This document shows, one piece after another, positions 14,889-53,632 of a DNA stretch of 64,000 bases. The number at the start of each line of letters is the position of its first letter. The first letter of the stretch is position 1. Source of the stretch: Alphaproteobacteria bacterium (GTDB taxonomy: Bacteria; Pseudomonadota; Alphaproteobacteria; UBA1280; UBA6503); assembly GCA_021774615.1 (NCBI GenBank), contig JAJFIW010000036.1, positions 37,318 through 101,317 on the forward strand, written 5' to 3'. The notes beneath the pieces are model-generated. The model worked only from the letters and a program-made list of their open reading frames with translations. It made no database searches and was not told where the DNA came from. A program made the translations under genes and the position numbers.

Positions 14889-15014
14889 GGAGTAGCTACC
14901 TTGTTTAATTATTTTTTATGAGCTTAATTGTAATAGAAAAACAATCCTTAGGCTATAAATGAATAATAAGGCGCTAGGAATAAACCTAACGCCTTATTAT
15001 TAGAGTTTAGTACT

Positions 15015-16049
15015 TTATTTTCTTAAAGCATTACTACCAAAGTGTGATCTTCCTCGACTATCTATGAACTGCAAGGAACCACTTCCGCTACTCCTAAGTG
15101 TTCCAGAAAAATGCCCAGAGACTTGGGCATTGCCCACAGCGCTCCAACTACCATTGTATGAAACACTGCTTGGGTTTCCTACTGCGTACGAGATAGTACC
15201 TAGTGCAGAGTATCGGTTTACACCCATAACAATGGTGTTTAAACTAGCTCCTGCTGCTGAGGCACTGGCTAATGATATCCAAGAACCTTGGTAGTAGCAG
15301 CCTCTGGTGCTTATGTATGTGTAATAACCACCTCTATAGTAGCAATACCTAGCAGTACCAACAGAGTAGTGCGGTGATGGTGACCCTAAAGTAGAGCAAT
15401 TTGAACTACCCACATTACGACTAGTATCGGTACAGAATGTTTCTGAAATATTTAACCCTCTAACTCTATTAGAAGTACCAGACAATACAGCCTCTATATA
15501 GCTGGTTTTTCCACCATAGGTGAATCTCCAGTTACCATTAACCCAAGAAAATGCAGCCAACGGATCAACCGGTGGCGGTGGTGGAGGTGGTGGAGGCGTT
15601 GGCGTAGGTGTAGGTGTTGGCGTAGGTGTTGGCGTAGGTGTAGGTGTTGGTGTAGGCGACCCACTTCCAAGAGCATTCACCCTAGAAATAAGGTTATTAA
15701 TTTGCGCTTGCATAGCATTAAGCCTGCTATTAATAGTATTAATGTTACCTGTATTGGTAGCAATACCAGTAGTGTTAGTGGCAATGTCAGCAGTATTAGT
15801 AGCAACTTGCGTTTCTAATGTACTAATTCTTGTGTCCAAGGCTGCTTGCCCTGACTGCAAATTAGGTATTGATGTACCGATAATAGTATTTACATTACTA
15901 TCTGTTGCCTGAAGGCCTGCAGCTAAAGACTGCGCTGAAGCTGAGTCTACAGTTTGGACCCCGCTTGCAGACATTGTTTGTGCTTGCGCTTGCGTGCCTG
16001 AAACCAGCATACACAAGCTGAATAAGGTTATAATTTCTATACGCTTCAT
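15015..16049 (-). CDS. Secreted paralog A: signal peptide, N-terminal coiled/repetitive region, (Pro-Thr)n-polyPro linker, Cys/Tyr/Ser/Gly-rich C-terminal domain
   Basis: 344 aa with signal peptide MKRIEIITLFSLCMLVSGTQAQA and the linker GSPTPTPTPTPTPTPTPTPTPPPPPPPPP. The C-terminal domain (AAFSWVNGNWRFTYGG...CYYRGGYYTY...) is clearly homologous to the ORF at 16198-17196. Confidence 0.6.
   Translation of the reverse strand: MKRIEIITLFSLCMLVSGTQAQAQTMSASGVQTVDSASAQSLAAGLQATDSNVNTIIGTSIPNLQSGQAALDTRISTLETQVATNTADIATNTTGIATNTGNINTINSRLNAMQAQINNLISRVNALGSGSPTPTPTPTPTPTPTPTPTPTPPPPPPPPPVDPLAAFSWVNGNWRFTYGGKTSYIEAVLSGTSNRVRGLNISETFCTDTSRNVGSSNCSTLGSPSPHYSVGTARYCYYRGGYYTYISTRGCYYQGSWISLASASAAGASLNTIVMGVNRYSALGTISYAVGNPSSVSYNGSWSAVGNAQVSGHFSGTLRSSGSGSLQFIDSRGRSHFGSNALRK
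15571..15657. repeat. In-frame GGN/hexanucleotide repeat tract (ggcgtaggtgta-type) encoding the poly-Pro and (Thr-Pro)n linker of paralog A
   Basis: Direct reading shows ggtggcggtggtggaggtggtggaggc followed by repeated gttggcgtaggtgtaggt units. Confidence 0.8.
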
Positions 16050-16158
16050 GTGGAGTCCCCCTAAATAACTTTAAATATAGTCCCCGTTACATCTTATATA
16101 CTGCATTAAAAATATTTTACTGACATATGTAAGGATGCCTAACATTGTATTAAAAATA

Positions 16159-16188
16159 AGGAGCTAATAATAAATACATAGCTCCTTA
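16159..16188. terminator. Terminator hairpin (aaggagct...agctcctt) downstream of paralog B
   Basis: 8-bp perfect inverted repeat with a T-tract on the minus-strand reading, located 10 nt past the stop of the 16198-17196 gene. Confidence 0.6.
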
Positions 16189-16197
16189 CCTTGTCTA

Positions 16198-17196
16198 TTA
16201 CTTTCTCATAGATACGTTAAAATAGGGCCTACCACTACCACTTAAGAATTGTAGGCTTCCTGAACCATTTTTATTTAATACACCAGAGAATGGCCCTGAT
16301 GATCTTGCTCCAGAGCCTATAGAGCTCCAAGAACCACTATAAGATACTCTGCCTGTGTTGCTTACAGAGTAAGATATAGATGCAAGAGCAGAATAGCTAG
16401 CGGTTGTAGATTTTATAGTGTTTAGAGTTGCACCATCTGCTTTCGCATCTTTAAGTGATATCCATTTACCTTTGTAAAGGCATCCTTTTGAACTAGAATA
16501 TGCATAATACCCACCTTTATAGTAGCAATTGTGCGAGGCAAGCATTATTGGGGCTGGACTACCCAACTGAGAACATTTTGGTTTTACTACATTACGAGTA
16601 GTATCGCGGCATGCCGTCTCTCTTATAGAAATGGATGACATACGATTTGTAGTACTGTTTAATGCTACATTAAAAGAACCTACAATCCCAGTGTTGCCTG
16701 CATAAGAGAATTTCCATACGCTATTAACCCAAGAGAATGCAGCAGTTGGGTCTGTAGGCTTAGGTGTAGGCGTAGGTGTTGGGGCTGGCGTAGGTGTTGG
16801 TGTTGGAGTTGGAGTAGGCGCAGGTGTAGCACCACCACCTCCTCCACCCCCAGCACCAAGAGCATTTATCTGTGCTTGTAAGCTTACATCTGTATTAGTT
16901 AGGCTTACATCTTTGTTAGTTAAGTTAGTTAAACTTGTGTCATGGCCATCTAGGCGTAATTTAAGAGCATCAATCTGTGCCTGTAGATTGGACTGCCCTG
17001 TTTGTAAATTAGGGATTGATGTACCGATAATAGTGTTTACATTACTATTAGTTGACTGAAGGTCTGCAGCTAAAGACTGTGCGGAAGCTGCATCTAAAGT
17101 TTGTGTGCCACTTGCAGACATAGTTTGTGCTTGCGCTTGCGTGCCTGAAATTACCATACACAAACTAAATAGCGTAATAACTTTAATGCTTTTCAT
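16198..17196 (-). CDS. Secreted paralog B: signal peptide, N-terminal repetitive region, poly-Gly + (Pro-Thr)n linker, Cys/Tyr/Ser/Gly-rich C-terminal domain
   Basis: 332 aa with signal peptide MKSIKVITLFSLCMVISGTQAQA and linker GAGGGGGGGATPAPTPTPTPTPTPAPTPTPTPKPT. The C-terminal domain aligns with paralog A (AAFSWVN..W.F.Y.G; CYYKGGYYAY; LQF..G.GR..F). Confidence 0.6.
   Translation of the reverse strand: MKSIKVITLFSLCMVISGTQAQAQTMSASGTQTLDAASAQSLAADLQSTNSNVNTIIGTSIPNLQTGQSNLQAQIDALKLRLDGHDTSLTNLTNKDVSLTNTDVSLQAQINALGAGGGGGGGATPAPTPTPTPTPTPAPTPTPTPKPTDPTAAFSWVNSVWKFSYAGNTGIVGSFNVALNSTTNRMSSISIRETACRDTTRNVVKPKCSQLGSPAPIMLASHNCYYKGGYYAYSSSKGCLYKGKWISLKDAKADGATLNTIKSTTASYSALASISYSVSNTGRVSYSGSWSSIGSGARSSGPFSGVLNKNGSGSLQFLSGSGRPYFNVSMRK
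16762..16856. repeat. In-frame hexanucleotide/GGN repeat tract encoding the poly-Gly and (Pro-Thr)n linker of paralog B
   Basis: ggtgtaggcgtaggtgttgg... units followed by accaccacctcctccaccccc. Confidence 0.8.
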
Positions 17197-17370
17197 GTCT
17201 AATCCCCTTAAATGTATTTAATCCCCATGCTTGCTTATGTGTTTTACCATAATTTATTTGCTGACATGCTATTAACATAGTATGTCTACTATTTTTAGTT
17301 ATACAAGTATAGTTGTATAATATGTTAACCTTAATTAGGTCTTTATATAAAAAAACAAGGAACTATTTGA

Positions 17371-17655
17371 ATGCGCTTAATTATTGCTTTGTTGCTTCCC
17401 CCACTATTGTTTTTAACGATAGGTCGTATTTTTTCGGCTATCATTTGTGCTGTTCTGCAGTTTACGCTTGTTGGCTGGCCAGTTGCTGCTTTATGGGCTG
17501 TTTATTCGTTAAGCCAATACAATACCGATAAAAAAATTGCTAAAGCTGTCGGCAGTACAGGTGGAGTTAGCTCTGCTGGTGGTGAAATTGCTGATATGAA
17601 GGCCGCACTCCGCTTTGGCTGGAAACGTATAAAAAACTTGCTAGGGCAGGGGTAG
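17371..17655 (+). CDS. YqaE/Pmp3-family small membrane proteolipid with a C-terminal extension
   Basis: The N-terminal 50 aa (LIIALLLPPLLFLTIGR...FTLVGWPVAALWAVY) match the UPF0057/Pmp3 two-helix pattern. The ~40-aa basic C-terminal tail is atypical. Confidence 0.55.
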   Translation: MRLIIALLLPPLLFLTIGRIFSAIICAVLQFTLVGWPVAALWAVYSLSQYNTDKKIAKAVGSTGGVSSAGGEIADMKAALRFGWKRIKNLLGQG

Positions 17656-17665
17656 TTTAATAATT

Positions 17666-17695
17666 AAAAAGCGCAGTTCATACTGCGCTTTTTCT
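17666..17695. terminator. Bidirectional rho-independent terminator (aaaaagcgcagt tcat actgcgcttttt)
   Basis: Perfect 7-bp GC stem flanked by an A5 and a T5 tract, between convergent genes. Confidence 0.75.
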
Positions 17696-17699
17696 TTGG

Positions 17700-18281
17700 C
17701 TATCTGGCTGGCTCTGCTTCCATGCTTTCTTCGATAGAGAGAGTTTCATCCTTTTCAGCTGTTATTCTTTCTTTATACCATGCGAGTGTATCTCCACCTT
17801 TTCCAGGAATTGTACCTGCCTCGCGTAATTCTCCTAGAGCTGCACCTTTAGTGATATTATTAGCTTTTGCATATGTTTCTACTTCAATATCAAGAGCTTG
17901 TTTTGCAATGGCATGTTCGCGGATATTTTCTGCTCGGGCTTGCTTGTCTACTTCTACCTCAGGGTCAACACCAGCAGGAACTGTTCCTGCTCCCACATGC
18001 TGATGGTATTTTGCTATAAATTGAGCCTCTATATATTCTACACTACTAGTCATATTTGATAGTGCAGTAGTGTATATCATACTTTTACCAGCAGGAGCCG
18101 CATCTGATGCCATTTTAGCAGCAGTCTCAGCTTCTTTTCTTACTTCAACTAAAAGTTTTTCATAGAACTTTGCTTGTTGCTCGTTTTCAGCATAAATATA
18201 AGCAGGGCTGTCATTCTTGTCTAAGGCATCTAGGAGCTGTACTGGTATCCCTTGTGGAGTATCATTTTGTTTGTCACTCAT
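17700..18281 (-). CDS. Hypothetical soluble protein (193 aa, acidic, no recognisable domain)
   Basis: Long ORF with good coding character and no signal peptide. Candidate secreted-effector-like protein by composition only. Confidence 0.4.
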   Translation of the reverse strand: MSDKQNDTPQGIPVQLLDALDKNDSPAYIYAENEQQAKFYEKLLVEVRKEAETAAKMASDAAPAGKSMIYTTALSNMTSSVEYIEAQFIAKYHQHVGAGTVPAGVDPEVEVDKQARAENIREHAIAKQALDIEVETYAKANNITKGAALGELREAGTIPGKGGDTLAWYKERITAEKDETLSIEESMEAEPAR

Positions 18282-22107: not shown

Positions 22108-23889
22108 TTGTTTATGAATGTATTAAACACACCTACACCCACAACATCAAGTAACCTGCCACCACGGCTGGCCGATTTTAAAACCTTGGCCGAAGCTATG
22201 GACTATGCAGCACAAGGGGATACAGGCTTTAACTTTTACGATGTCCGTGGGAACTTAATAGATATACTTCCGTATAAAGAAATTCGTACTAAAGCGCAAC
22301 AACAAGCACAGCAACTTTTAGGGCTTGGGTTAAAGCGTGGCGACAGAGTAGGGATAGTTGCCGACATGGAACCTTATTTCCTAACAACTTTCTTTGCTTG
22401 TCAATATGCAGGGTTAATGGCTGTGCCTTTACCAGTTATTACAGGCCTTGGCGGCAGGCACGGCTACGAGCAACAACTAGAAAAAGTACTAACCACTTCA
22501 GAAGCAAAAGTTGCCATTGGGCCAGAAGATTTACAAAGCCACCTGTCTGAAGCTACCAAAAGTATGGAGATTAAACTTCTAACTCCAGAAATGCTAGACA
22601 CTCTAGCTATAGCAGATATAGCCCTTGCACCATTGCAAGCAGATGAAGAAAGCCATATTCAGTTTTCATCGGGCAGTACACGCCACCCTAAAGGGATTAT
22701 AATCAGTCAAAGCGCAATGCTTAATAATGCACACATGATAATGGTAGACGCCCTTAAAGGTAACGAATTTGGCTGTGTGGAGCGGGTGGCATCATGGTTG
22801 CCATTTTACCACGATATGGGGCTTATTGGCTGTATGCTAACCCCAATTTGCTGCCAATTCTCGGTAGATTTATTACATACCGACTCTTTTGCACGCCAAC
22901 CACTGCAATGGCTAAAACTAATTGCTCGCAACAAAGCTACAATATCGTTTGGCCCAACTTTTGGTTACGAAATTTGTGCACGCCGTGCTTCACGCCTTAA
23001 AGACGATACCCTTGACCTTTCCTCGTGGCGGGTGGCAGGCATTGGCGGCGAGATGGTACATGCACAACCTCTTTCCGACTTTGCTAGAGCATTTGCTCCA
23101 TATGGCTTTAAAAGCAGTGCCTTTACCCCTAGCTATGGTTTGGCAGAAGCTACCTTAGCTATTTCGTTTTCAGATGTAGACAAAGACGTTATGACCGATG
23201 CTGTAGACAAAAACTCACTATTAGCAGGTGATGCAATCCCTACTACTGAAGACAGCAGTGTAGACTCTGCCGAAACTAGAGTGCTAGTATCATGTGGAAC
23301 TCCTCTAAAAGGCTATAAGGTAGAGATTAGAGCTGAAGATGAAAGTATTTTACCCGAGCGTAAAGTAGGCCGAGTATGTGCCTCGACCCCAAGCTTGATG
23401 ACAGGCTACTTCCACGATGCAGAAGCCACCGCAGAAAGCATGCTCCCCGATGGTTGGTTGGACACAGGCGACATGGGCTATATGGTCGATGGGCAACTAG
23501 TGCTTACTGGCCGCAAAAAAGATATGATCATAATTAACGGGCGTAATATTTGGCCCCAAGACATGGAATGGCACGCCGAACAAAACATAGACATTCTACG
23601 TAGCCGCGACACAGCAGCCTTTGCGGTAGAAACAGAAACTGGTAAAGAAGAACCAGTAATGCTAGTGCAAACACGCACAATGGATGCAGACAAACAATCC
23701 CAGCTTGCAAAAGATGTGCATGCCGCAGTTATTAAAAATACAGGTGTTGACTGCCGAGTAGTCCTTGTGCCACAACGTAGCTTGCCTTATACTACTTCAG
23801 GCAAGTTAAGCCGAGCAAAAGCAAAAAAAGCCTACCTCGAAGGCACCATTAAACCCTTACAAATTGCTGGAGAAGAGTCAGCAGCATGA
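22108..23889 (+). CDS. Fatty acyl-AMP ligase / acyl-ACP synthetase (AMP-dependent synthetase family)
   Basis: 593 aa with adenylation motifs (SSGSTRHPKGIIIS; GYGLAE; DTGDMGY). It sits at the head of an ACP/Spt cluster. Confidence 0.8.
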   Translation: MFMNVLNTPTPTTSSNLPPRLADFKTLAEAMDYAAQGDTGFNFYDVRGNLIDILPYKEIRTKAQQQAQQLLGLGLKRGDRVGIVADMEPYFLTTFFACQYAGLMAVPLPVITGLGGRHGYEQQLEKVLTTSEAKVAIGPEDLQSHLSEATKSMEIKLLTPEMLDTLAIADIALAPLQADEESHIQFSSGSTRHPKGIIISQSAMLNNAHMIMVDALKGNEFGCVERVASWLPFYHDMGLIGCMLTPICCQFSVDLLHTDSFARQPLQWLKLIARNKATISFGPTFGYEICARRASRLKDDTLDLSSWRVAGIGGEMVHAQPLSDFARAFAPYGFKSSAFTPSYGLAEATLAISFSDVDKDVMTDAVDKNSLLAGDAIPTTEDSSVDSAETRVLVSCGTPLKGYKVEIRAEDESILPERKVGRVCASTPSLMTGYFHDAEATAESMLPDGWLDTGDMGYMVDGQLVLTGRKKDMIIINGRNIWPQDMEWHAEQNIDILRSRDTAAFAVETETGKEEPVMLVQTRTMDADKQSQLAKDVHAAVIKNTGVDCRVVLVPQRSLPYTTSGKLSRAKAKKAYLEGTIKPLQIAGEESAA

Positions 23890-24836
23890 CCAAAAAAGCA
23901 AGCGATATGCGTATAGCCGTTACAGGTGGTTCTGGTTTTATAGGCCAGCGTCTGCTCGAGAAATTAGCTGAACAAGGCTTTAAAGTAAATGCGCTCGAAA
24001 ACCGTACTCCACTATACACCCATGAAAATATTACCCCGATTAAAGGTGGTTTGACTGACACCAATGCCTTGCAAAAACTAGTTAAAGGTTGTGATGTTGT
24101 TGTGCACGGGGCAGGGTTAATAGCTGCTCGCCGAGGCGCAGACTTTTATAAGGTTAATACCGAAGGCACTCGCCGTTTAGCACAAATTGCCAGCTACGAG
24201 AAAAACGAAAGATTTTTACTTGTTTCGAGCTTGTCTGCTCGGGAATTTGAACTGTCGGACTACGGCATGAGCAAGAAAAAAGCAGAACAATCCCTTAGCA
24301 CATTTCATAACTTAAAATGGGATGCTATACGCCCACCTGCTGTTTATGGCCCAGGGGATATGCAATTTTTGATGCTAATGAAAATGGTTAAAAGCGGCAC
24401 GGTATTGCTTCCTGCAGGTAGAGACGCCAGAGCATCTCTAGTTTTTGTTGACGACCTTGTAGACGCTGTTATTTCTTGGATATATAACGCTAAGCCAAAC
24501 AGTAATGTGTACGAAATTGACGATGGTATGGAAAATGGCTATTTGTGGCAAGATGTAGCCGCAAAAGCTGCCGAAATTCTTAATGTCAGCCCACGGTATT
24601 TGGTCCCGCCAAAATCTTTAGTGCAGTTACTATCGTATGCTAGTTTTCTTGCAGGTGAGGTAACAAGAACTATTCCGGCCTTACCGCCAGAAAAAGCACG
24701 CCAACTTTGCCACCATAACTGGGTCTGTAATGACCATACACTTGGGGAAGATATTAACTGGAAACCACAAGTTAGCTTTGACGAAGGGTTTAAAAAAACT
24801 ATTGCTTGGTATCAGGCAGAAGGGTTGTTACAATAA
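23886..24836 (+). CDS. NAD-dependent epimerase/dehydratase-family SDR (candidate 3-ketodihydrosphingosine/ceramide reductase, CerR-like)
   Basis: Rossmann motif VTGGSGFIGQRLLEKL and an SDR YxxxK region (YGMSKKKAE). The position between the acyl-ACP synthetase and the ACP mirrors the Caulobacter sphingolipid locus. Confidence 0.6.
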   Translation: MTKKASDMRIAVTGGSGFIGQRLLEKLAEQGFKVNALENRTPLYTHENITPIKGGLTDTNALQKLVKGCDVVVHGAGLIAARRGADFYKVNTEGTRRLAQIASYEKNERFLLVSSLSAREFELSDYGMSKKKAEQSLSTFHNLKWDAIRPPAVYGPGDMQFLMLMKMVKSGTVLLPAGRDARASLVFVDDLVDAVISWIYNAKPNSNVYEIDDGMENGYLWQDVAAKAAEILNVSPRYLVPPKSLVQLLSYASFLAGEVTRTIPALPPEKARQLCHHNWVCNDHTLGEDINWKPQVSFDEGFKKTIAWYQAEGLLQ

Positions 24837-24866
24837 CTACCTCTTTTTAATCTAAAGGAATAGACT

Positions 24867-25118
24867 ATGGCACAGACAACGCACGCACAAATAGTAGATA
24901 AAATCTGCGAAGAATTAAAAAGTATTGATACGGGTATCAAAATTGACCTGTCGGCTGATACTAACATGACTACTGATATCAAAGTAGACTCGTTGGATGT
25001 TATGGAATTAGTATTTGCATTAGAAGAAGCTTTTGATGCATCTATCCCAGTTAATGACTTAAGCGATGTATTTACAATTGGTGAGCTTGCATCACTAGTA
25101 CAAAAAAACATGGACTAA
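24867..25118 (+). CDS. Acyl carrier protein (dedicated, cluster-associated)
   Basis: 83 aa with the phosphopantetheine attachment motif DSLDVMELVFALEEAF. Confidence 0.85.
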   Translation: MAQTTHAQIVDKICEELKSIDTGIKIDLSADTNMTTDIKVDSLDVMELVFALEEAFDASIPVNDLSDVFTIGELASLVQKNMD

Positions 25119-25146
25119 CTAAAATATAATTTCTAAGGATAAAACT

Positions 25147-26337
25147 ATGGCAGACTTGCTCGATAAATTCCGCTCATTAAAAGAAATCCACACCAACATT
25201 GTAGAAATGGTGGGGCGTGACCCTTTGGGTGTACCATTCGAAAAAATGATATCACCAACCGAAGCGGTTATCGGCGGTAAAAATTGCGTATTGCTTGGTT
25301 CCAATAACTACCTTGGGCTTACATTCTACCAAGAGGGGATGGACGCTGCAAAGGCTGCTATTGATAAATCTGGAACTGGTACAACAGGCTCGCGGATGGC
25401 AAATGGTAGCTATAGTGGCCATATGGCTTTAGAAAGAAAGTTGGCCGAATTTTATGGTAAAAAACATGCCATGCTATTTACTACGGGCTATCAGGCTAAT
25501 GTAGGCTTTATTTCGGCTATTTCTGGCAAAGATGACTATATCTTTATCGATGCCGACAGCCACGCTAGTATTTATGATGGCTGTAAATTGGGTGATGGCA
25601 CAGTTATTCGCTTTCGCCACAATAATGCTGACGACTTAGCTCGCCGTTTGAAAAAACTCCCTGCAGATTCTAATAAAATAGTAATTGTTGAGGGCATATA
25701 CTCTATGTCGGGCGACCGTGCGCCATTAAAAGAGCTAGTTCGTGTAGCAAAAGAGTATAACGCCTACATCATGGTAGACGAAGCACACTCCTTAGGTGTT
25801 CTGGGCGAAAATGGTCGAGGGCTACTTGAAGAAGTAGGCGTTGAGGATGATGTAGACTTTGTGTTGGGTACATTCTCTAAAAGTGTTGGTACGATTGGCG
25901 GTTTTTGTGTGTCTAACCACCCTGAAATCGAAACAATGCGCTTTGCGTCACGTGCTTATATGTTTACAGCATCACCACCACCATCTATCGTGGCATCAGC
26001 AAGCGCAACCTTAGATTATATCCGCGATACACCAGAACTGCGTAAAAAACTGTGGGCAAACACCGATGTTGTCTACGATTCTTTAAAAGCTATGGGCTAT
26101 AAAGTAGGGGTAGAGAAAACCCCAGTTATAGGCATCCAAATGCCAAGCCTTGAAGAAGGCATTAGGGTTTGGAATGTATTGTTCGATAACGGTGTATATG
26201 TAAACATGGCATTACCACCAGCAATACCAATGGGTAAATGCTTACTCCGCTGCTCACCATCGGCAGCCCATACCCCCGAGCAACTCGAGCAAGTTGTGGC
26301 TGCATTTACAAAGGCACAACCTGCGGTCGCTGCTTAA
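25147..26337 (+). CDS. Alpha-oxoamine synthase; serine palmitoyltransferase-like (PLP-dependent aminotransferase class II)
   Basis: 396 aa with the PLP-lysine motif GTFSKSVGTIGG plus typical AOS blocks (GSNNYLGL; DEAHSLGVLG). Confidence 0.8.
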   Translation: MADLLDKFRSLKEIHTNIVEMVGRDPLGVPFEKMISPTEAVIGGKNCVLLGSNNYLGLTFYQEGMDAAKAAIDKSGTGTTGSRMANGSYSGHMALERKLAEFYGKKHAMLFTTGYQANVGFISAISGKDDYIFIDADSHASIYDGCKLGDGTVIRFRHNNADDLARRLKKLPADSNKIVIVEGIYSMSGDRAPLKELVRVAKEYNAYIMVDEAHSLGVLGENGRGLLEEVGVEDDVDFVLGTFSKSVGTIGGFCVSNHPEIETMRFASRAYMFTASPPPSIVASASATLDYIRDTPELRKKLWANTDVVYDSLKAMGYKVGVEKTPVIGIQMPSLEEGIRVWNVLFDNGVYVNMALPPAIPMGKCLLRCSPSAAHTPEQLEQVVAAFTKAQPAVAA

Positions 26338-26364
26338 AATGTAAATATTATAAGGAAGAGGTAA

Positions 26365-27078
26365 ATGTTTAAAATATTAGTTCTATCCTTATTTATTATT
26401 ACTCCATATTCTGCAACTGCAGAAACTATAGATGCTTTCATAAGTAAAATAGAGAAGGCATTCTCCATAGCGGATGTAGAAAATCGCAAACAAGCTATGC
26501 TAGAGCTTTTTTATTTACCAAATGCAGATGGAGAAGATATTAAAATGTACCATGATAGGATTATTGATAAACGCCTTGGTAAGCTAGAAGCTCCTAAATT
26601 GGGTACGGAGGCTTTACCCGAAGACTTTGTAATGAGCTATGTTAATAATGGTATAGAGTTTAAAGCCACGCTTACTCCTGTGGGTATGTTAACTTTTAAT
26701 GAAAAAATGAAAATACCATACGGTAAAAAACCAGATGGTAATTTTGCACTTGCTGGAATGCTTAAGCACAACGTAATAGCTAATGCCCCAGAAGACGTTG
26801 TATTAAACATGATGGTTATGGGTATGGGTAACCCTCCCGTTAGATTTTCTGGCTACTGTGATGTTATGCAAGCCAATAATAAAACTAGGCGCATGACATT
26901 CGAAGACAATAATAATGGTAATAATACATTGGCTACATGGGCGCAATATGTACACTCGTGCGAAGTAAAAAAACTATCTACACATGGTACACTTCAACTT
27001 AGAATTACCGCTGGGGATACTGATATATTTAAAAAAGTTATTTCTGAGAAAGACAGAAAAATTATTTACCAGCACTAA
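26365..27078 (+). CDS. Secreted/periplasmic hypothetical protein
   Basis: Signal peptide MFKILVLSLFIITPYSATA. No recognised domain. Confidence 0.4.
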   Translation: MFKILVLSLFIITPYSATAETIDAFISKIEKAFSIADVENRKQAMLELFYLPNADGEDIKMYHDRIIDKRLGKLEAPKLGTEALPEDFVMSYVNNGIEFKATLTPVGMLTFNEKMKIPYGKKPDGNFALAGMLKHNVIANAPEDVVLNMMVMGMGNPPVRFSGYCDVMQANNKTRRMTFEDNNNGNNTLATWAQYVHSCEVKKLSTHGTLQLRITAGDTDIFKKVISEKDRKIIYQH

Positions 27079-27998
27079 CCCACAATCTTGCGAGTAAGGA
27101 CTTTATAAAGCAATGGCCAGCCACCGATTAGGGGGTGACGGCGTTGGAAGTCTGTGGCTTCAATGCGTTCGCCGGTGTGGCGTTCGATTTTCCAGATTAT
27201 ATAGTCTACAGCGCCATCAAAAGTGAGCGGGGCTTTTATAAGGCGTAGTAGTGTTACCAGCTTACCGCTTAAGCGCCTAATTGGTGTGTTTAGTTTTTTA
27301 AATAGATGCTGCTTAGAGCTAGACTGTATAGCAAACTTGTTGTTATCTTCTTTTCTTAATAACTTAGGGTTATTTTGGGCAAAAAGTTCGGTGCATTTAT
27401 CAAACCGTGTTGGCGATGCATCGTATATAGAGTTTTGCCTTGCTTTTGACTCGCTCCGCAATTCTGACCCATATGTGTCGGCCATGCCTGTGGTCCAGAT
27501 TTCTTGTGGGGTAACTGTGCCTTGTAATAGTGGGATACTGCGGCGGTGGAATGTTTCTACTGCCATTGCTAAAGAGTCAATAACTTTGTTTTCTCTATGT
27601 TTGCCACGTGCCCAAACAAGCCTGCAAGGCTGCGAGAACCTTGCCCATATACTTGGTGCAACACTCCAACCATTAGCAGCTCTTTCAAACTGCTTAACAG
27701 TCATAACGGCGTATTTACAACGTAGAGTTTTGCCATCATGGGAAATTTCTTTGTAGTAAACATTGGGTGGTAAAATAGCACCCCAAAAACGGTGGCTTAG
27801 TGGTGAGGATGCAGCTTTAAAGCTATCGACTAGTAAGTAAAAATCCATAACAGTGTCGTCGGCTAGTTCTTTCCAAAGGCCAGAACCATAAAACATAACT
27901 GCTGCTGCACCATTATTGCCTTTATAGATGCTTTCAGCCATTGCGATAACTTCGCCTTTGCAAGGGGTAAGGCATTCGTGCTTTATAAGGTCGCGCAT
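27075..27998 (-). CDS. Nucleotidyltransferase-fold protein, possibly Tam41/Mmp37-like (phosphatidate cytidylyltransferase-like)
   Basis: Minimal NTase motif (YGSGLWKELADDTVMDFYLLVD: GS...D.D). The size and helical C-terminal half resemble the eukaryotic mitochondrial CDP-DAG synthase Tam41. This is a low-confidence family call. Confidence 0.35.
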   Translation of the reverse strand: MRDLIKHECLTPCKGEVIAMAESIYKGNNGAAAVMFYGSGLWKELADDTVMDFYLLVDSFKAASSPLSHRFWGAILPPNVYYKEISHDGKTLRCKYAVMTVKQFERAANGWSVAPSIWARFSQPCRLVWARGKHRENKVIDSLAMAVETFHRRSIPLLQGTVTPQEIWTTGMADTYGSELRSESKARQNSIYDASPTRFDKCTELFAQNNPKLLRKEDNNKFAIQSSSKQHLFKKLNTPIRRLSGKLVTLLRLIKAPLTFDGAVDYIIWKIERHTGERIEATDFQRRHPLIGGWPLLYKVLTRKIVG

Positions 27999-28006
27999 AA
28001 AAAAGG

Positions 28007-28969
28007 CTAGGCCTTTCCTAGAGCAAAAGTAAATGGCTTTTCTATACTAACCGAGATTGGGGCATCTTCAGATGCTTGGTACATTTCGCCGTCAAGTGTC
28101 CACTCTCCATCAAAACTTAGGTCGCAACTATCTGTACGGAAACCAATGCAGCCGTCATCTTTTTTTGGGTCAAGAGGGTGTTTACCGAAAAGTAAGGTTG
28201 GTAAATGGTGGATAAACCGTTTGTATGGGTTAAATACACCCATAACTGACATCCCACCTTTACCTTGTTGTTGGGGCTTTATGCCTAGCAGCAGTTTATC
28301 TAGCGATGTAATTGTGAGAAATACAGTATCTACCTTTTGGGTTGTAGAGTTGTGTTTAATAGTTGTAGGTGTTGGTTTTAATAATAAATCTTCTGTTGGT
28401 TTTCCTTGTGCTAAGCGCCATAGCATAATTGCCATAGTTACGCTTTCGCTAAAAGTGCTATTAAAACCACGGTCATGGAGGTTTTTACGTGTTTTATGGA
28501 TAACCCTAGGGATGGCAGATGTACCAAGGAAAAAACCGTATAATGGAGTTTTTCTAGTGTCTGATTTTACTGCAATTGGAGCACGAGAAACAGTTTTAAC
28601 AATACCTTCATCAGCCCATTGCAAAAGGTCTAGTATAGGTTGGTTCGAGTCGCCACTAAAACCAACATCTTTATGGGCCATATTGGTTGTGCCTGCATCA
28701 TAAAGGGCTATGGTAGGCTCTTTTTTGAATAGTTTTTTTGCCCGTAGCTCTGTCATAACGGTATCTAGTGTGCCATCGCCACCAATAATTGCTAGGTAAT
28801 CTGCATTTTTTGCTGCTATATCTTCGAGAGCTTGGGGGATGTCATCTACCGAGTTTGTTTGTTGAAAAACAATGTTCTTAGCATTGCGGACGCTATCTAT
28901 ATGGCTATGGATAGCTCCACGCCTTTTTTTACCGCTATTAGGGTTGTAAATAACACCAATAATTGCCAC
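28007..28969 (-). CDS. Lipid kinase of the DAGK_cat family (diacylglycerol/sphingosine/ceramide kinase-like)
   Basis: N-terminus IGVIYNPNSGKKR... and the catalytic GGDGT motif (IIGGDGTLDTV). This is the YegS/BmrU/LCB5-type fold. Confidence 0.7.
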   Translation of the reverse strand: MAIIGVIYNPNSGKKRRGAIHSHIDSVRNAKNIVFQQTNSVDDIPQALEDIAAKNADYLAIIGGDGTLDTVMTELRAKKLFKKEPTIALYDAGTTNMAHKDVGFSGDSNQPILDLLQWADEGIVKTVSRAPIAVKSDTRKTPLYGFFLGTSAIPRVIHKTRKNLHDRGFNSTFSESVTMAIMLWRLAQGKPTEDLLLKPTPTTIKHNSTTQKVDTVFLTITSLDKLLLGIKPQQQGKGGMSVMGVFNPYKRFIHHLPTLLFGKHPLDPKKDDGCIGFRTDSCDLSFDGEWTLDGEMYQASEDAPISVSIEKPFTFALGKA

Positions 28970-28973
28970 AGGT

Positions 28974-30146
28974 TTACCTCTCTAACCATGATATAACACG
29001 GCCACCTGTTAAAACTTTAAATTCAGCCTGTATAATCTGTAGTAAGTGTACCAGTAATGAGGCAAAAGTCCAACCAGCAATTGCCCAAACAGCCCAGTCT
29101 GGGCGGTTTATAACAACACAAGCTGTCATTAGCAGCATGTTTGGGTTGCGACGGGCTGTAATTAGCCTGAAGAAACTATCAAACTTACGCCAAATATGCA
29201 TATGGATATGGAAACGAACAATAAAGTACCCCTCTAATATGCGTTGTGCCACATAGCCACCAACAATAACTATAAGTAGCATATTAAGAGTTTCTTTTGG
29301 TAACTCCATGCCCACATGTACTAGCCCGTAAGCCCAAGCTACATACCAAAATGGTGGGTGGATAAGGTCTGTACCGTGATCTAGGATATTCCCTATTTTT
29401 GACGATGTAAATGTAACCCTAGCAAGCTTGCCGTCTACAGTGTCAAGGAATGTCATAATCCAGCCAGCTAGTAGACCTAATGCATATTGCCCTTCCCAAA
29501 AGAGGAATAGAGCATAAAACATTAGAATTATGCCAGCAATAGTAACCATATTAGGGCTTATATTTGCTTTAATACACCATTTAGTTACAACCATTGCAGG
29601 GCGAGGCCAAAAATATTTAGTAACAAAGTCTGTTACACCTTTATATGTTCCCATGAAAATTCGGTGTTCTGTTTGTTTAAGAGTCTCATCATCAAGCTTC
29701 AAACAGTAAGGAGCTTCTTTTTTGCGCAAATCCGAGTCAAAGTTACCGCCAATAGTAGCAGTTGTTTTGGCCTCCAACCCTGTAGGGATATCATTTTTGC
29801 CTTGTAGCCATTTTATTGCAGCAGCAGCTTGTTTTGGTATGGTGTGCACTGCTAGCGGGACATTATTGTCTGTCAAAACTGTTTGGGTACTGTCGATAAG
29901 ACCAGATAAAATAGGTTTGTCGTATGCATAGTCTGTCATTATTAGAATAATGGTATTATTACTGGGTACAGTGTTTAAATCTGATTCTTCAATGACTTCT
30001 ATATTCATATTGCTAAATATGCGGCGTAGGCGTTCAGCACCACTTAGCCCCCAAACTTTAGGGGAAATGTTAGTGCCACGGTTCAATAAAACCACCGTAA
30101 TGGCATTTAGTTGTGATGGTTGTTTGACATTTGCAGTATTTTTCAT
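28974..30146 (-). CDS. CDP-alcohol phosphatidyltransferase-family membrane enzyme with an extra N-terminal soluble domain (fusion)
   Basis: Exact CDP-OH PT signature DG(x2)AR(x8)G(x3)D(x3)D (DTVDGKLARVTFTSSKIGNILDHGTD) in the membrane-embedded C-terminal half. The N-terminal ~150 aa soluble domain may be a cytidylyltransferase-like module, as in archaeal IPCT/DIPPS fusions. Confidence 0.75.
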   Translation of the reverse strand: MKNTANVKQPSQLNAITVVLLNRGTNISPKVWGLSGAERLRRIFSNMNIEVIEESDLNTVPSNNTIILIMTDYAYDKPILSGLIDSTQTVLTDNNVPLAVHTIPKQAAAAIKWLQGKNDIPTGLEAKTTATIGGNFDSDLRKKEAPYCLKLDDETLKQTEHRIFMGTYKGVTDFVTKYFWPRPAMVVTKWCIKANISPNMVTIAGIILMFYALFLFWEGQYALGLLAGWIMTFLDTVDGKLARVTFTSSKIGNILDHGTDLIHPPFWYVAWAYGLVHVGMELPKETLNMLLIVIVGGYVAQRILEGYFIVRFHIHMHIWRKFDSFFRLITARRNPNMLLMTACVVINRPDWAVWAIAGWTFASLLVHLLQIIQAEFKVLTGGRVISWLER

Positions 30147-48413: not shown

Positions 48414-49610
48414 TTAAGCAGTTTTCTTGCTTGGAACAGGCAATAAGTGTTTTTCGCTCTCATCACGATGTTTTTTTAGGTATTTCATAAAAGGTGTGCC
48501 ACCTGTACCAACATCACTCGGGTTACCAGCTAAACTATTTTGTTTATTAATGTATGATGCTGCATATTCTAAATGTAGAGCACGGAACTGGTGCATTTGG
48601 CTAAGGCAAGCGTTATATAGCTCGGTCAACTCTATGTTTTCAGTTTTTTCTACAAATGCTCTTAAACCGCTGCGTTTTGCTACTTCTTCAATAAAACGAC
48701 GGTGTAAAACTGGGCGATAATCGTGCAATTCGTTTAAATATTGGCGCAGAGGGTCGTTAGAGTGCATAACATTAAATAAAGCATCCATTGTTGGCACAAT
48801 AGAGCTTTGCGAGCCTGTTTGACCACGGAAACCTTGGATCTCTCCTTTAAATTTATCCACACCTTCATAGATCACGCCACCTGGTAGGTCAGGGTTGTCT
48901 TGCCAGCCGTGGATATAGGGGCGGACACGGGTAAAGTAGGTATATGGGTCGCAGCGTTCTACCATGCGTGCCATAGTTGGGTTTATATTTTGCCATGAGG
49001 CAAGTATTTCTTTAAGCCCTGCAATTACAGCTTGTTCGTTGCTGGCGTCTACACCTTCAAAAATAGATGGGATTGCTGCTAGTGCTTGGCCAGCTTCGGC
49101 CTCAATCTCCACATGGATCATTTTAAACCAGTTTTCGTCAATCCCGCTCGAAAAATGTTGCATCATGTAGATGTTCTCTACGGTTATTCCACCTTTTTTG
49201 TCAAGCATGCTCCAGTTGTCTAGCACGTAGCATGAGTAAGGCAGAAGAGGGAACTGTTCTAGTTTTTCAGCAACAAGGCAAAAGGGCACACTAATATTAC
49301 GGGGGATAATATGGTTGGGTTCATCCTCACCCCATACCCAGCTTTGGGCAAAGTACGAGTAGTAAACCATAGCGTTTCTAAGTTGCTCGTTGGTGGCTGT
49401 ATTAACAAAACTAGTTACGTCAATTTCAGGGATAGTTTTAAGATAACGGCGCACCACACCTGTGGCCATCCACTCGGGTAGCCATTTTGCGGCTTCAATG
49501 ATTGGGTTAAATAGCTCTGGCATTTGTACAGTTACAGGGTCGTACTTACATAAAAATCCACGCTCTTTAGAAACATCAAACTTAGTAATATCAAAATGTT
49601 CGGTCATCAT
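48414..49610 (-). CDS. Indoleamine 2,3-dioxygenase-like haem dioxygenase (eukaryote-like)
   Basis: 398 aa. Blocks are collinear with human IDO1: IPRNISVPFC vs LPRNIAVPYC; IHGWQDNPDLPGGVIYEG vs LSGWKGNPQLSDGLVYEG; FRGQTGSQSSIVPTMD vs FAGGSAGQSSVFQCFD; LRQYL vs MRRYM. Confidence 0.8.
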   Translation of the reverse strand: MMTEHFDITKFDVSKERGFLCKYDPVTVQMPELFNPIIEAAKWLPEWMATGVVRRYLKTIPEIDVTSFVNTATNEQLRNAMVYYSYFAQSWVWGEDEPNHIIPRNISVPFCLVAEKLEQFPLLPYSCYVLDNWSMLDKKGGITVENIYMMQHFSSGIDENWFKMIHVEIEAEAGQALAAIPSIFEGVDASNEQAVIAGLKEILASWQNINPTMARMVERCDPYTYFTRVRPYIHGWQDNPDLPGGVIYEGVDKFKGEIQGFRGQTGSQSSIVPTMDALFNVMHSNDPLRQYLNELHDYRPVLHRRFIEEVAKRSGLRAFVEKTENIELTELYNACLSQMHQFRALHLEYAASYINKQNSLAGNPSDVGTGGTPFMKYLKKHRDESEKHLLPVPSKKTA

Positions 49611-51287: not shown

Positions 51288-52028
51288 TTACTGTTTGGTA
51301 ATCGTTACGGTCAAGTTTGGGCAAATTTTAATACTATCAGCCTCTTTTATGGCTTCACATATAATGTCAGTGTCAACCATGAGTTCGTCATCGGCATTAC
51401 TGTCTTGAATTTGCCGTAATAAAGAAAGCATTATAGTGTCGCTACCTTTAATTGCAGTATAATCGTACTCGATGCCATCGTTAAAGTTTTTAATAATGAT
51501 GTCATCTGGCCAAGTGTAACTAATGTTGATATTAGCTTTTACAAGCTTACCATCAGCAGAGGATAGCGTAGTTTGTTCTTGCCATTCTCCATGCATATTT
51601 TTTACAATGGTAATTTCTTCGCCCCCCAACCAAGTTGGCGGGTAGGTGCGATACTTTTCACTAATGCTAATAGTTCCATCTGCATGGATTGCAGCATCAG
51701 TAATATTAACTTGCGTGGAGCTAAAAAATAACATAATAGCTATCGTTGCTCCAAAACCTAAACTAATAGTGTACTTGTTTAGTATTGAGCATATTGCTAG
51801 GAACCCTGCCACAATAAATACAAGTAATGACACTATTAAAGTGAAATCTTGGCTGGATTCTGAGGCGTATCCATAAAATATGAATTGCCACAAGAAAATT
51901 GCTGCTACTAGTGCAATACCAGTAAGGTGTATGGCGATTTTCAAAAATGTTTTGAAAAAATCTGATTCCATAATATTAGCGGCATGGTTTGACATATTTA
52001 CCTCCAAAGGTAAAAAAGAAAAAAGCAA
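51288..52028 (-). CDS. Membrane-anchored paralog family protein, member 1 (conserved C-terminal C-x8-CP-x-LTVTIT motif)
   Basis: 246 aa with N-terminal TM helices. The C-terminal periplasmic-type domain is homologous to 52865-53632 (YPPTW/YPPW; WQEQT; LRQI.DS; ICPNLTVTIT vs GCPQITVSIT). Confidence 0.55.
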   Translation of the reverse strand: MLFSFLPLEVNMSNHAANIMESDFFKTFLKIAIHLTGIALVAAIFLWQFIFYGYASESSQDFTLIVSLLVFIVAGFLAICSILNKYTISLGFGATIAIMLFFSSTQVNITDAAIHADGTISISEKYRTYPPTWLGGEEITIVKNMHGEWQEQTTLSSADGKLVKANINISYTWPDDIIIKNFNDGIEYDYTAIKGSDTIMLSLLRQIQDSNADDELMVDTDIICEAIKEADSIKICPNLTVTITKQ

Positions 52029-52066
52029 ACAAATCCCCCATATTTTGAGAGGGATTTGTTTTGTGA

Positions 52067-52717
52067 TTACTGTGCAGTGTTAACTGTTATGGTTAGCTTA
52101 GGGCAAGTTGGAATTGGTGTACCTGCCATCATTGCAGCGCAAACAGCGCTTGTATCAATGTTCAGGTTTTCTACGGTATGATCATTATCTGCAATTTGCA
52201 CTAATACGGCAGATATAATAGTATTGGCGTTAACCATACTCCTGTAGTCAATCTGCTTTCCAGCATAGAAATTAGAAACTAAAAAACCATTTAGCCACTG
52301 ATAATCAATGTTGATATCTATTAACTGCTGATTTTCTAGCAAAACCATCTGCTGGTTTATGTTTCCATGTGTGTGTGTTATTAAATGTATATTTGGCTTT
52401 GGGTGGTATATGGCAATATCGGTATCTTGATGATGTGCAATATTTATACTGCCAGACTTATTACCAATTAAGACAGAATCTGTTGGGGTAGCTATAATCG
52501 CAGTTAACGCTATAACAGCAATGGTAATCGCATAACCAAGCATTATGCCGACCATAGTTTTATCTGACCATCGCATCATTATAAGGAATGATACAATAAC
52601 CGCTGGTAGCATCATCCATGGTGTGGTGTAGTCTTTGAAGTGCCACTGCCAAAAGTGTGCAGCTACTACTAGAAATGCAATAACAACTATAGATATAATA
52701 GTTTTTAAATATTTCAT
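52067..52717 (-). CDS. Membrane-anchored paralog family protein, member 2 (divergent)
   Basis: 216 aa with N-terminal TM helices. The C-terminus (AVCAAMMAGTPIPTCPKLTITV) matches the family motif. Confidence 0.5.
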   Translation of the reverse strand: MKYLKTIISIVVIAFLVVAAHFWQWHFKDYTTPWMMLPAVIVSFLIMMRWSDKTMVGIMLGYAITIAVIALTAIIATPTDSVLIGNKSGSINIAHHQDTDIAIYHPKPNIHLITHTHGNINQQMVLLENQQLIDINIDYQWLNGFLVSNFYAGKQIDYRSMVNANTIISAVLVQIADNDHTVENLNIDTSAVCAAMMAGTPIPTCPKLTITVNTAQ

Positions 52718-52825
52718 GATAATCTCCGAGAGAGAATGTGAAAAGAAAAGGGAAGAAAAAATAATAGATATTATTGAGAGAATTTATAATAGCTATGGCA
52801 CTTTGTGTCAACATGCCATTACGTA

Positions 52826-52861
52826 AAAAGCCACCCTCTGTTGTAGAGGGGGGCTTTTCTG
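52826..52861 (-). terminator. Terminator (gccaccctctgttgtagaggggggc + T-tract) downstream of paralog member 3
   Basis: Seen directly, 4 nt after the stop at 52865. Confidence 0.6.
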
Positions 52862-52864
52862 TTT

Positions 52865-53632
52865 CTATTTTTCTCTAGTAATAGAAACCGTTATTTGAGG
52901 GCAGCCTTCAAGGCCTTCCATTTTCTGCAACTCTGCACATGCATCTAATGTATTAATTCTAATATTATCAATACTTTCAGTGCTATCTGCAATTTGTCTT
53001 AATATAATAAGCATTATAGGAGAGTCATTTGATGAACTCCAAGTATAATTGCGCATTATATTTTTATTAAAATCAGAAAGGATAATTTCTTTTGACCATT
53101 CGTAGTTGATACTAACTATGATAGGTATAAGTTCTTCATTTTTTAGAACTTTTGTTTGCTCTTGCCATTGACCACGGACATCTTTTATTACATAAAAATC
53201 ACCTTTAGCCCATGGTGGGTATAAAGACTCTGTAATATGAGTAATAACTACAGTTTCACCATTGTCAGCTGTACGGAGCAATGTATCTTCAGGTGTTACA
53301 TATGTTCCAAGTGAGGCAATAATAGCGGCAATTATTGACCCTAGAAGGGAAACCAATGTTATATAAGGTGTCTTCTTACTTAAAAAATATGAGCCTACCA
53401 GCATTATAGTTCCTGATAATAATATTCCTGTTACTGTGCTATTGCCTATAATTGGGTATTCCCAAAATAGAGACAATGCAGCAACAAGTACAACTAATAA
53501 CCACATTATTATTTTTGCAAATACATAGACAATATGTGGAACATTTTTTAATAAAGATTCAGTTTTTTGCATAAAACCCTCCGATAAGGGGTTAGAAAAA
53601 GAAAAACAAACAGATGAGATATATTTATACAC
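52865..53632 (-). CDS. Membrane-anchored paralog family protein, member 3
   Basis: 255 aa with 3 N-terminal TM helices and the C-terminal conserved domain. Confidence 0.55.
   Translation of the reverse strand: MYKYISSVCFSFSNPLSEGFMQKTESLLKNVPHIVYVFAKIIMWLLVVLVAALSLFWEYPIIGNSTVTGILLSGTIMLVGSYFLSKKTPYITLVSLLGSIIAAIIASLGTYVTPEDTLLRTADNGETVVITHITESLYPPWAKGDFYVIKDVRGQWQEQTKVLKNEELIPIIVSINYEWSKEIILSDFNKNIMRNYTWSSSNDSPIMLIILRQIADSTESIDNIRINTLDACAELQKMEGLEGCPQITVSITREK

Follow-up and report, generated by a model that had tools for sequence, protein, structure and literature searches.

A tandem pair of putatively exported rod-spacer-head proteins with an orphan C-terminal domain in an alphaproteobacterial genome

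Organization of the locus

Two adjacent genes, here called A and B, lie on the minus strand of a 64,000-nucleotide stretch of contig JAJFIW010000036.1 (positions 37,318 to 101,317, assembly GCA_021774615.1) from an alphaproteobacterium of the lineage UBA1280/UBA6503. This whole stretch is the window referred to below, and all positions are counted from its first nucleotide. Both genes encode a protein with a Sec-like signal peptide, a Thr/Asn-rich coiled-coil rod, a Pro/Thr-rich spacer, and a Cys-containing C-terminal domain. The original prediction had described a tandem pair of secreted paralogs here, and the list of open reading frames (ORFs) contains two same-strand frames at exactly the positions it gave. 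The genes and their flanking signals are as follows.

15015..16049, minus strand: gene A, 344 amino acids (aa), with a signal peptide, coiled-coil rod, (PT)10-P9 spacer, and four-Cys beta-rich domain
16198..17196, minus strand: gene B, 332 aa, with the same architecture as gene A
14963..15001, minus strand: terminator hairpin 3′ of gene A, with a 17-bp stem and a U-rich tail (-25.1 kcal/mol, z -6.1, 0 of 200 shuffles as stable)
16155..16190, minus strand: terminator hairpin 3′ of gene B, followed by a U run (-17.9 kcal/mol, z -3.7, 0 of 200 shuffles as stable)
16050..16147, minus strand: leader and promoter region of A, homologous to the leader of B, with a GGGGA Shine-Dalgarno site
17197..17296, minus strand: leader and promoter region of B, homologous to the leader of A
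15981..16049, minus strand: signal peptide of A, aa 1-23, MKRIEIITLFSLCMLVSGTQAQA then QT, recognized by inspection
17128..17196, minus strand: signal peptide of B, aa 1-23, near-identical to that of A

The two proteins are 51% identical from end to end (E 1e-87), and a tblastn search of the 64-kb window returned no further paralog. Over 328 aligned codons, with the frame intact throughout, the ratio of nonsynonymous to synonymous divergence (dN/dS) is 0.25 at a dS of ~1.5. The same ratio of 0.25 is found in the C-terminal domain, where dS is ~1.9 and near saturation, and the conserved N-terminal module (N-module) has a ratio of 0.17. The duplication is old, and both copies have been kept by purifying selection. 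Decay into pseudogenes is not indicated, as neither A nor B contains a frameshift or a stop codon and dN/dS is 0.25.

Each gene is preceded by a GGGGA Shine-Dalgarno site and followed by a terminator hairpin of its own, and A and B therefore constitute two separate transcription units. The G+C content at third codon positions (GC3) is 0.31 in A and 0.26 in B, at or just below the range of 0.30-0.39 in neighbouring housekeeping genes, and these frames of 344 and 332 aa stand in a genome of ~60% AT.

The leaders of the two genes had also been proposed to be homologous, as the trace of a tandem duplication that included regulatory DNA. This is borne out by the proximal ~95 nt of each leader, but the homology does not extend over the whole intergenic regions, and a stringent local alignment is not significant. 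The global alignment of the proximal segments scores 20.5 against 2.2 +/- 3.9 for dinucleotide shuffles, none of 1000 shuffles reaching the score, and the same procedure applied to 21 other upstream regions of the window gives scores of at most 7.0. A promoter-like TAGGCA-16-TAAAAT lies at 16141-16114 in the leader of A, a match to consensus only. Across the 5′ ends of the genes, comprising leader, signal peptide, and N-module (15880-16147 and 17027-17296), DNA identity is 77-92%, compared with 47-70% in the C-terminal domains, and the synonymous divergence pS is lower in the N-module than in the C-terminal domain (0.43 versus 0.69, Fisher p 0.009). The low pS and the homologous leaders suggest either that the tandem copies have undergone gene conversion or that their 5′ end is constrained at the nucleotide level. 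The motif GGGGAYT occurs twice in each leader, the second copy being the Shine-Dalgarno site. A known RNA element in the leaders was considered and rejected, there being no Rfam match at gathering score in the window.

A common signal peptide had been described for both proteins, and this is upheld by the shared, Sec-like sequence MK(R/S)I..ITLFSLCM..SGTQAQA ahead of QT. As read from the sequence, the n-region is basic, the hydrophobic core spans 13 residues, and positions -3 to -1 are A-Q-A, so placed that cleavage in A and B would be expected after residue 23; AlphaFold models aa 5-24 of A as a helix. Lipidation at Cys13 was rejected by inspection, as the residue at -1 is Leu, the Cys lies in the middle of the hydrophobic core, and there is no lipobox.

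The coiled-coil rod

The N-terminal part of both mature proteins had been described as a Thr/Asn-rich periodic segment resembling the stalk of a trimeric fibre. The periodicity is a true heptad repeat in both proteins, with the following extents.

15669..15980, minus strand: rod of A, aa 24-127, consisting of the N-module (aa 24-63) and nine heptads (aa 64-127)
16858..17127, minus strand: rod of B, aa 24-113, consisting of an A-like N-module and heptads that lack layers with Asn at position d
15735..15806, minus strand: three IATNTxx heptads in A with Asn at d (N85, N92, and N99), encoded by an imperfect 21-nt tandem repeat

The heptad register of A is unbroken from Leu64 to Leu127, with the residues QIVIIILIV at the a positions and LLLNNNIMLL at the d positions. 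Fifteen of the 19 core positions are thus Ile, Leu, Val, or Met, the others being three Asn at d and one Gln at a, and each Asn at d has Thr as its next residue. B keeps the register of A, with Leu (in one case His) at d in eight heptads. AlphaFold, run with a two-sequence alignment, predicts aa 36-127 of A as a single 92-residue helix, with a predicted local distance difference test score (pLDDT) of 73-89, and the rod would therefore begin with the conserved N-module (aa 24-63), which would form no domain of its own. A rise of 0.15 nm per residue gives a predicted rod length of ~14 nm in A and ~12 nm in B.

A profile search of the PDB with the mature N-terminal parts returned weak matches (E 0.01-0.85), and many of the strongest matches to the rod are parallel trimeric coiled coils. 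They include the SadA stalk fragments 2WPR and 2WPQ (E 0.025-0.034), EibD (2XZR), the gp26 tail needle of P22, and reovirus sigma-1; the SadA segment NTADITTNTNSINQNTTDIATNTTNINNL and the A segment TNTADIATNTTGIATNTGNINTINSRL carry the same motif. Within trimeric coiled coils, Asn at d (typically as N(d)T) produces ordered layers in which an anion is coordinated on the axis (PMC13580157, citing Hartmann et al. 2009); it is characteristic of the stalks of trimeric autotransporters, in which ~45% of d positions are polar (PMC13580157). From this motif and the trimeric PDB matches we infer a parallel trimer, most likely a homotrimer. The proposal of a trimeric-fibre-like stalk accordingly gains support from a single register over 8-9 heptads, the three N(d)T layers of A, the trimeric PDB matches, and the 92-residue helix.

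Imperfect tandem repeats of 21 nt, each unit encoding one heptad, are found at 15751-15805 in A and at 16868-16924 in B (2.6-2.8 copies, 76-78% matches). The repeat of B encodes its LTN(K/T)DVS heptads, and two of its copies are 90% alike. The length of the rod has probably changed by duplication of whole heptads, which would preserve the coiled-coil register. Divergence along the rod is uneven: the start is nearly identical between A and B (nonsynonymous divergence pN 0.10), and the heptad repeats have diverged almost fully (dN 0.87). Within the N-module (A aa 24-63, 15870-15980; B 17010-17127), the residues L42, L46, V53, I57, and L64 are spaced 4-7-4-7 when examined by eye. This 11-residue, hendecad-like spacing turns to heptads at Leu64, and the supercoil may change along the rod.

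The spacer and its coding sequence

Between rod and C-terminal domain, each protein has a low-complexity spacer of ~36 residues, which could reach up to ~11 nm when extended, for a combined length of rod and linker of ~25 nm.

15561..15668, minus strand: spacer of A, aa 128-163, GSGS-(PT)10-P9-VDP, modelled as disordered by AlphaFold
16747..16857, minus strand: spacer of B, aa 114-150, G-A-G7-ATPA-(PT)5-PA-(PT)3-PKPT-DP

The (PT)n, poly-Pro, and poly-Gly linkers are present as originally described, except that B carries G-A-G7 and not nine consecutive Gly. Their likeness to the spacers of secreted carbohydrate-active proteins is also supported, in that the only full-length "homologues" beyond the paralog were of chitinase or lytic polysaccharide monooxygenase (LPMO) type and were matched via their PT linkers; on inspection these full-protein matches were rejected as linker artefacts.

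The proposal that the linkers are encoded by perfect 6-nt repeats did not hold. In both genes, perfect repetition at period 6 extends over at most 14 nt (2.3 copies), and Tandem Repeats Finder reports period 6 with 71-75% matches. Pro codons (CCT, CCA, and CCG) and Thr codons (ACA, ACG, and ACT) alternate in the linkers, and the repeats are imperfect because synonymous third-base changes interrupt them. The longest perfect tract at any period, 32 nt with a period of 12, occurs once in the linker of gene A. The argument for slipped-strand mispairing, which rests on perfect hexanucleotide repeats, is left poorly supported, and there is therefore no basis to expect frequent changes in linker length by this route. 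The long perfect tandem tract that marks a contingency locus is likewise lacking, with 14 nt at period 6 and 32 nt at period 12, and no second copy of the locus from another strain was found in genome, metagenome, or viral collections. For a change of length in frame during evolution, the 21-nt heptad repeats of the rod are more plausible candidates than the PT linker.

Several further ORFs overlap the linker DNA, at 15520-15912 on the plus strand and at 15494-15676 and 16680-16865 on the minus strand. They are mirror or alternative frames, encoding poly-Gly and Gly-Val on the plus strand and off-frame sequence rich in His, Leu, Arg, and Gln on the minus strand, and are by-products of low-complexity coding sequence, not genes.

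The C-terminal domain

The C-terminal domains of the two proteins align over their whole length and share their Cys residues.

15018..15560, minus strand: C-terminal domain of A, aa 164-344, beta-rich, with Cys206, Cys218, Cys236, and Cys251
16201..16746, minus strand: C-terminal domain of B, aa 151-332, 52% identical to its counterpart in A and with all four Cys conserved

The original prediction characterized this domain correctly: it has about 181-185 aa, four conserved Cys, a CYY(R/K)GGYY motif, and a composition of 19% Ser, 10-13% Gly, and 6-8% Tyr. A and B have retained all four Cys along with many aromatic and Gly positions, and the spacings of 12 and 15 residues between the Cys suggest two local disulfides.

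Structure prediction had been proposed as a check on this domain. The AlphaFold model of the domain has ~12 beta strands and one short helix, and the region is also beta-rich in the full-length model (pLDDT 49); at a pLDDT of 42, however, the domain model is untrustworthy. The low pLDDT reflects the two-sequence alignment and is no evidence of disorder. A Foldseek search of the PDB with this model, itself only of pLDDT 42, gave a best E of 1.1 and template modelling scores of at most 0.21. An argument for a folded domain comes instead from purifying selection, the four invariant Cys, and the invariant pattern of aromatic and Gly residues. An internal repeat was considered and dismissed, as hhalign of the two halves gave a probability below 8%.

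Relatives of the C-terminal domain were sought widely. In an exhaustive hmmsearch with a two-sequence profile, ORF B was the sole match among 1.84 billion sequences representing ~15 billion proteins. Nothing came up when 185,579 species genomes, JGI metagenomes, and IMG/VR were scanned by pattern plus tblastn, nor in tblastn against plasmid and phage records, and PDB sequences yielded only Fab noise at E ~0.5. Pfam and NCBIfam, even at E<=10, held no relevant match, with no lectin, C1q, carbohydrate-binding module (CBM), adhesin, or barrel family among the results. The lectin-like or adhesin label proposed for the domain is thus neither supported nor contradicted. PHROGs and PADLOC were negative for the domain as well, and across all four family libraries the matches stayed below threshold and involved coiled-coil or low-complexity sequence. 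A word-indexed profile search with the C-terminal domain found nothing and is a weak negative, since it missed ORF B too; the same search with the N-module also found nothing, and carries little weight for the same reason. No N-module was found in phages, plasmids, or viral contigs, and an N-module 29-mer was absent from metagenomes. For the N-module, orphan status is therefore less secure than for the C-terminal domain.

Proposed function and alternative explanations

A and B are tentatively read, at somewhat less than an even chance, as functional, separately transcribed, and anciently duplicated genes for exported rod-spacer-head proteins that would form a trimer with three tethered binding heads. 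The architecture is much more certain than the function. After Sec export and cleavage of the signal peptide, the N-terminal 90-100 residues would form a parallel coiled-coil rod, most likely a homotrimer, and the core of the rod in A would contain three Asn-at-d layers of the anion-holding kind seen in trimeric-autotransporter stalks. In each chain, a protease-resistant, extended Pro/Thr spacer of ~36 residues, with poly-Pro in A and poly-Gly in B, would tether a head, which is predicted to be a soluble, beta-rich domain of ~181 residues, probably with two disulfides. Three heads tethered flexibly in this way would be suited to multivalent (avidity) binding of an envelope or extracellular ligand. 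The near-identical rod start, together with the diverged repeats and heads, suggests shared docking at the N-terminal end and diverged specificity at the C-terminal end; the common end of the rod may serve a shared partner or assembly step, and the diverged heads may bind different ligands.

Several points weigh against this reading. B lacks the Asn-at-d layers and has Asp at two a positions, and the PDB matches to the rod are weak (E 0.025-0.1) and depend on a brief low-complexity motif. Neither A nor B is adjoined by a secretion system, usher, partner barrel, or glycosyltransferase, and no cell anchor is evident in either protein. The model of the C-terminal domain is not to be trusted, and the soluble globular head is postulated from conservation and the Cys pattern. 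Trimer state and ligand binding are likewise putative, and so is the location (periplasm, surface, or medium); the data agree as well with a periplasmic or outer-membrane place as with secretion beyond the outer membrane. The protein of gene A, sought with its full-length start and with every in-frame ATG start, is absent from the collection of ~15 billion proteins, while that of gene B and those of all checked neighbours from the same contig are present. The source record may carry no annotation for gene A.

One alternative takes the C-terminal domain to be a membrane barrel. In FapF, an N-terminal parallel trimeric coiled coil with polar core layers is followed by a ~40-residue linker and a C-terminal barrel, and in DcaP and ScrY, too, an outer-membrane barrel is preceded by a trimeric coiled coil that lies in the periplasm (PMC6173795). 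By analogy, the C-terminal domain of A and B could be a small barrel of 8-10 strands inserted into the outer membrane by the beta-barrel assembly machinery (BAM), with a periplasmic coiled coil that would hold three barrels together or reach a periplasmic or inner-membrane partner. The domain order equals that of FapF (signal peptide, N-terminal trimeric coiled coil, linker, and C-terminal domain), and the C-terminal domain is beta-rich, with aromatic/polar alternation, an abundance of Ser, Gly, Tyr, and Asn, and few acidic residues. BAM is present, as BamD is encoded in the window, outer-membrane insertion requires no extra secretion system, in keeping with none being seen nearby, and a rod and linker of ~25 nm are on the scale of the periplasm. 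Nevertheless, no outer-membrane barrel family matches at E<=10, four conserved Cys would be unusual for a membrane barrel, and 184 aa is far below the size of the 12-18-strand barrels of FapF, DcaP, and ScrY. Most of the predicted strands in the first half, in a model of pLDDT 42, have 3-6 residues, with 2-residue turns on either side, and are too short to span a membrane. A terminal aromatic residue is typical of proteobacterial barrel proteins, but A and B end in LRK and MRK, and the window has no barrel protein that could serve as a control. On balance a barrel is considered unlikely, though it is the main rival of the tethered-head reading.

A second group of explanations concerns location and behaviour. 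Lpp and CpoB (YbgF) are periplasmic trimeric coiled coils, and CpoB has a C-terminal globular tetratricopeptide repeat (TPR) domain whose binding partner is part of the envelope, for example peptidoglycan or a Tol-Pal-like machine. A role for A and B as a periplasmic spacer or envelope organiser of this kind, which differs from the tethered-head reading mainly in location, is also judged unlikely. A Sec signal with no further sorting signal leads to the periplasm by default, and A and B have no lipobox or recognizable outer-membrane or secretion signal. The periplasm supports disulfide formation, CpoB has a similar order of N-terminal trimeric coiled coil and C-terminal domain, and rod plus linker are of periplasmic length. 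Yet no LPP, YbgF/TolA-binding trimerisation, or peptidoglycan-binding family was matched, PT and poly-Pro spacers are more typical of extracellular proteins, and the pair is not beside tol-pal or cell-wall genes. Very unlikely, by our estimate, is the explanation favoured in the original prediction, in which the paralogs are lectins or adhesins secreted by a type II secretion system (T2SS) or displayed at the surface, with slippage varying the linker length as at a contingency-type locus. PT linkers are typical of secreted carbohydrate-active proteins, and it was through the linker that the full-length matches arose; the repeat units are in frame, A has the perfect 32-nt period-12 tract, and the 21-nt heptad repeats could alter rod length in frame. 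The hexanucleotide repeats are nonetheless imperfect (at most 14 nt perfect, 71-75% matches), as would be expected where slipping is not frequent, no lectin, CBM, or adhesin family was matched in Pfam or NCBIfam, T2SS genes are not in the window, and no second strain or metagenome copy was found.

That the ORFs are spurious, either decaying duplicates or chance frames in low-complexity DNA, would agree with the absence of the gene A product from the public protein collection and of homologues elsewhere. This is extremely unlikely given a dN/dS of 0.25 at near-saturated dS over 328 codons with no frame disruption, the conservation of signal peptides, Shine-Dalgarno sites, and terminators, and the conserved pattern of Cys and aromatic residues. 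A bolder version of the tethered-head reading, which we consider quite unlikely, makes the pair the sole representatives sampled so far of a novel protein family, in which a rod of the anion-holding, trimeric-autotransporter style is exported by plain Sec, with no autotransporter anchor, and a previously unseen disulfide-bonded beta fold is carried on Pro/Thr tethers. Such a family would be an independent, minimal route to a fibre with heads in a deep-branching diderm lineage, with the rod tip docking to an envelope partner.

Genomic neighbourhood

The window is part of an ordinary diderm chromosome, with genes for BamD, RecN, LigA, RimK, LptF/LptG, an AcrAB-type pump (AcrB), and glutathione reductase. 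Horizontal or phage origin of the pair was considered and rejected, since the GC3 of A and B equals or falls slightly short of the neighbouring range, the window shows neither a tRNA nor a mobile-element signature, and housekeeping genes flank the pair. The neighbouring proteins are singleton clusters in the protein collection, and the best match of the nearby glutathione reductase among 185,579 species genomes is 44% identical, in a scan that needs shared exact 8-mers and gives no phylogenetic placement.

Downstream of gene A lies a gene for a membrane-associated class III nucleotide cyclase. Upstream of gene B, and divergent from it, is a small membrane protein of 94 aa (17371-17655, plus strand), which matches phrog_34509, of unknown function, at E 1e-26 and has no Pfam match; a 193-aa protein without assigned function follows. 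Between the convergent ORFs at 17371-17655 (plus strand) and 17700-18281 (minus strand), a GC-rich hairpin, aaaaagcgcagt...actgcgcttttt, occupies 17635-17761. It has sub-threshold Rfam matches to STnc40 and Atu_C9, lies outside the leaders of A and B and over the terminator of the convergent genes, and is most simply a bidirectional terminator.

Farther away, the region 22108-30146 encodes an acyl-AMP ligase, an NAD-dependent epimerase/reductase, a class I/II aminotransferase of the 8-amino-7-oxononanoate synthase/serine-palmitoyltransferase type, a diacylglycerol-kinase-like kinase, a CDP-alcohol phosphatidyltransferase, and two ORFs without assigned function. By its look it may be an unusual lipid synthesis cluster, maybe for a sphingolipid-like pathway. 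A bacterial homologue of indoleamine 2,3-dioxygenase (Pfam IDO, E 2e-83) is encoded at 48414-49610 and adjoins a 471-aa protein with only a partial ThyX-like domain. Three tandem ORFs on the same strand at 51288-53632 (246, 216, and 255 aa) encode paralogs that are ~28% identical. They share the motif C..CPxLTvTIT in their C-terminal part, match nothing in Pfam, and make up a further lineage-specific tandem family of the window.

Significance

If the tethered-head reading is true, the Asn-at-d trimeric stalk of autotransporter adhesins has been reused in small Sec-exported proteins with reversed domain order, and a beta-rich domain without relatives among ~15 billion predicted proteins joins the folds worth solving. 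The pair offers a clean, small target for structural biology, as two paralogous orphan envelope proteins with a clear domain plan from a poorly sampled lineage, and could help to show what proteins of this kind do where no close relatives have been sequenced. What stands out is a clean Asn-at-d rod outside an autotransporter, combined with a head for which no relatives at all were found. The finding is incremental. Envelope proteins without relatives are frequent wherever sampling of a lineage is poor, and no result here conflicts with what is established. The original description of the locus is largely upheld, and its interpretation in part. The finding also carries a correction: in-frame low-complexity linkers with mixed synonymous codons are not to be read as hypermutable repeats.

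Comparison with known systems

Among known systems, trimeric autotransporter adhesins provide the closest parallel to the rod. Like them, A is an exported diderm protein with I-x-x-N-T-x-x heptads and Asn at d, three in a row. Unlike them, A and B have no YadA-type C-terminal anchor, which contributes four strands per chain (no match at E<=10), and no head or neck motifs of these adhesins. The order of parts is also different, with an N-terminal rod and a C-terminal globular domain in A and B and a head-stalk-anchor order in the adhesins; A has only 344 aa, and the heptads of B lack Asn at d. The likeness of the A rod to the stalks of SadA and EibD lies at the level of the motif, with homology not demonstrable at E 0.03. 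A and B do not belong to this class of adhesins, although their rod resembles its stalk in the way it would work.

FapF, DcaP, and ScrY resemble A in the placement of the coiled coil (aa 36-127) straight after the signal peptide and ahead of a 36-residue disordered spacer, if the rod is indeed trimeric. They differ in the C-terminal domain, which in A and B has 184 aa, four Cys, an LRK or MRK end, short strands, and no barrel-family match, and in gene context, as no fap or sugar/dicarboxylate uptake genes are near A and B. Membership of A and B in the FapF type hinges on whether their C-terminal domain is a barrel. With CpoB and Lpp the pair shares the plan of a small exported protein that starts with a coiled coil, here presumed to be trimeric, and in CpoB a C-terminal globular domain follows. 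A and B are set apart from both by the lack of a family match or lipobox, by a long PT spacer, and by a head that is beta-rich and contains Cys where CpoB has TPR.

The PT-linked chitinases, LPMOs, and CBM proteins have a (PT)n spacer between modules, as do A and B, but only the linker is common, and no catalytic or carbohydrate-binding module is detectable in A or B with Pfam or NCBIfam. Collectins, C1q-like proteins, and viral fibres use a trimerising rod to present C-terminal heads for multivalent binding, as proposed for A and B. The pair, by contrast, has a signal peptide and no collagen repeat, and its sequence gave no match to a C-type lectin, C1q, or knob domain; phage context is lacking too, with PHROGs and phage tblastn negative. 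Seen against these systems, the pair is a variant of the known exported rod-tether-head design, built around a domain without known relatives.

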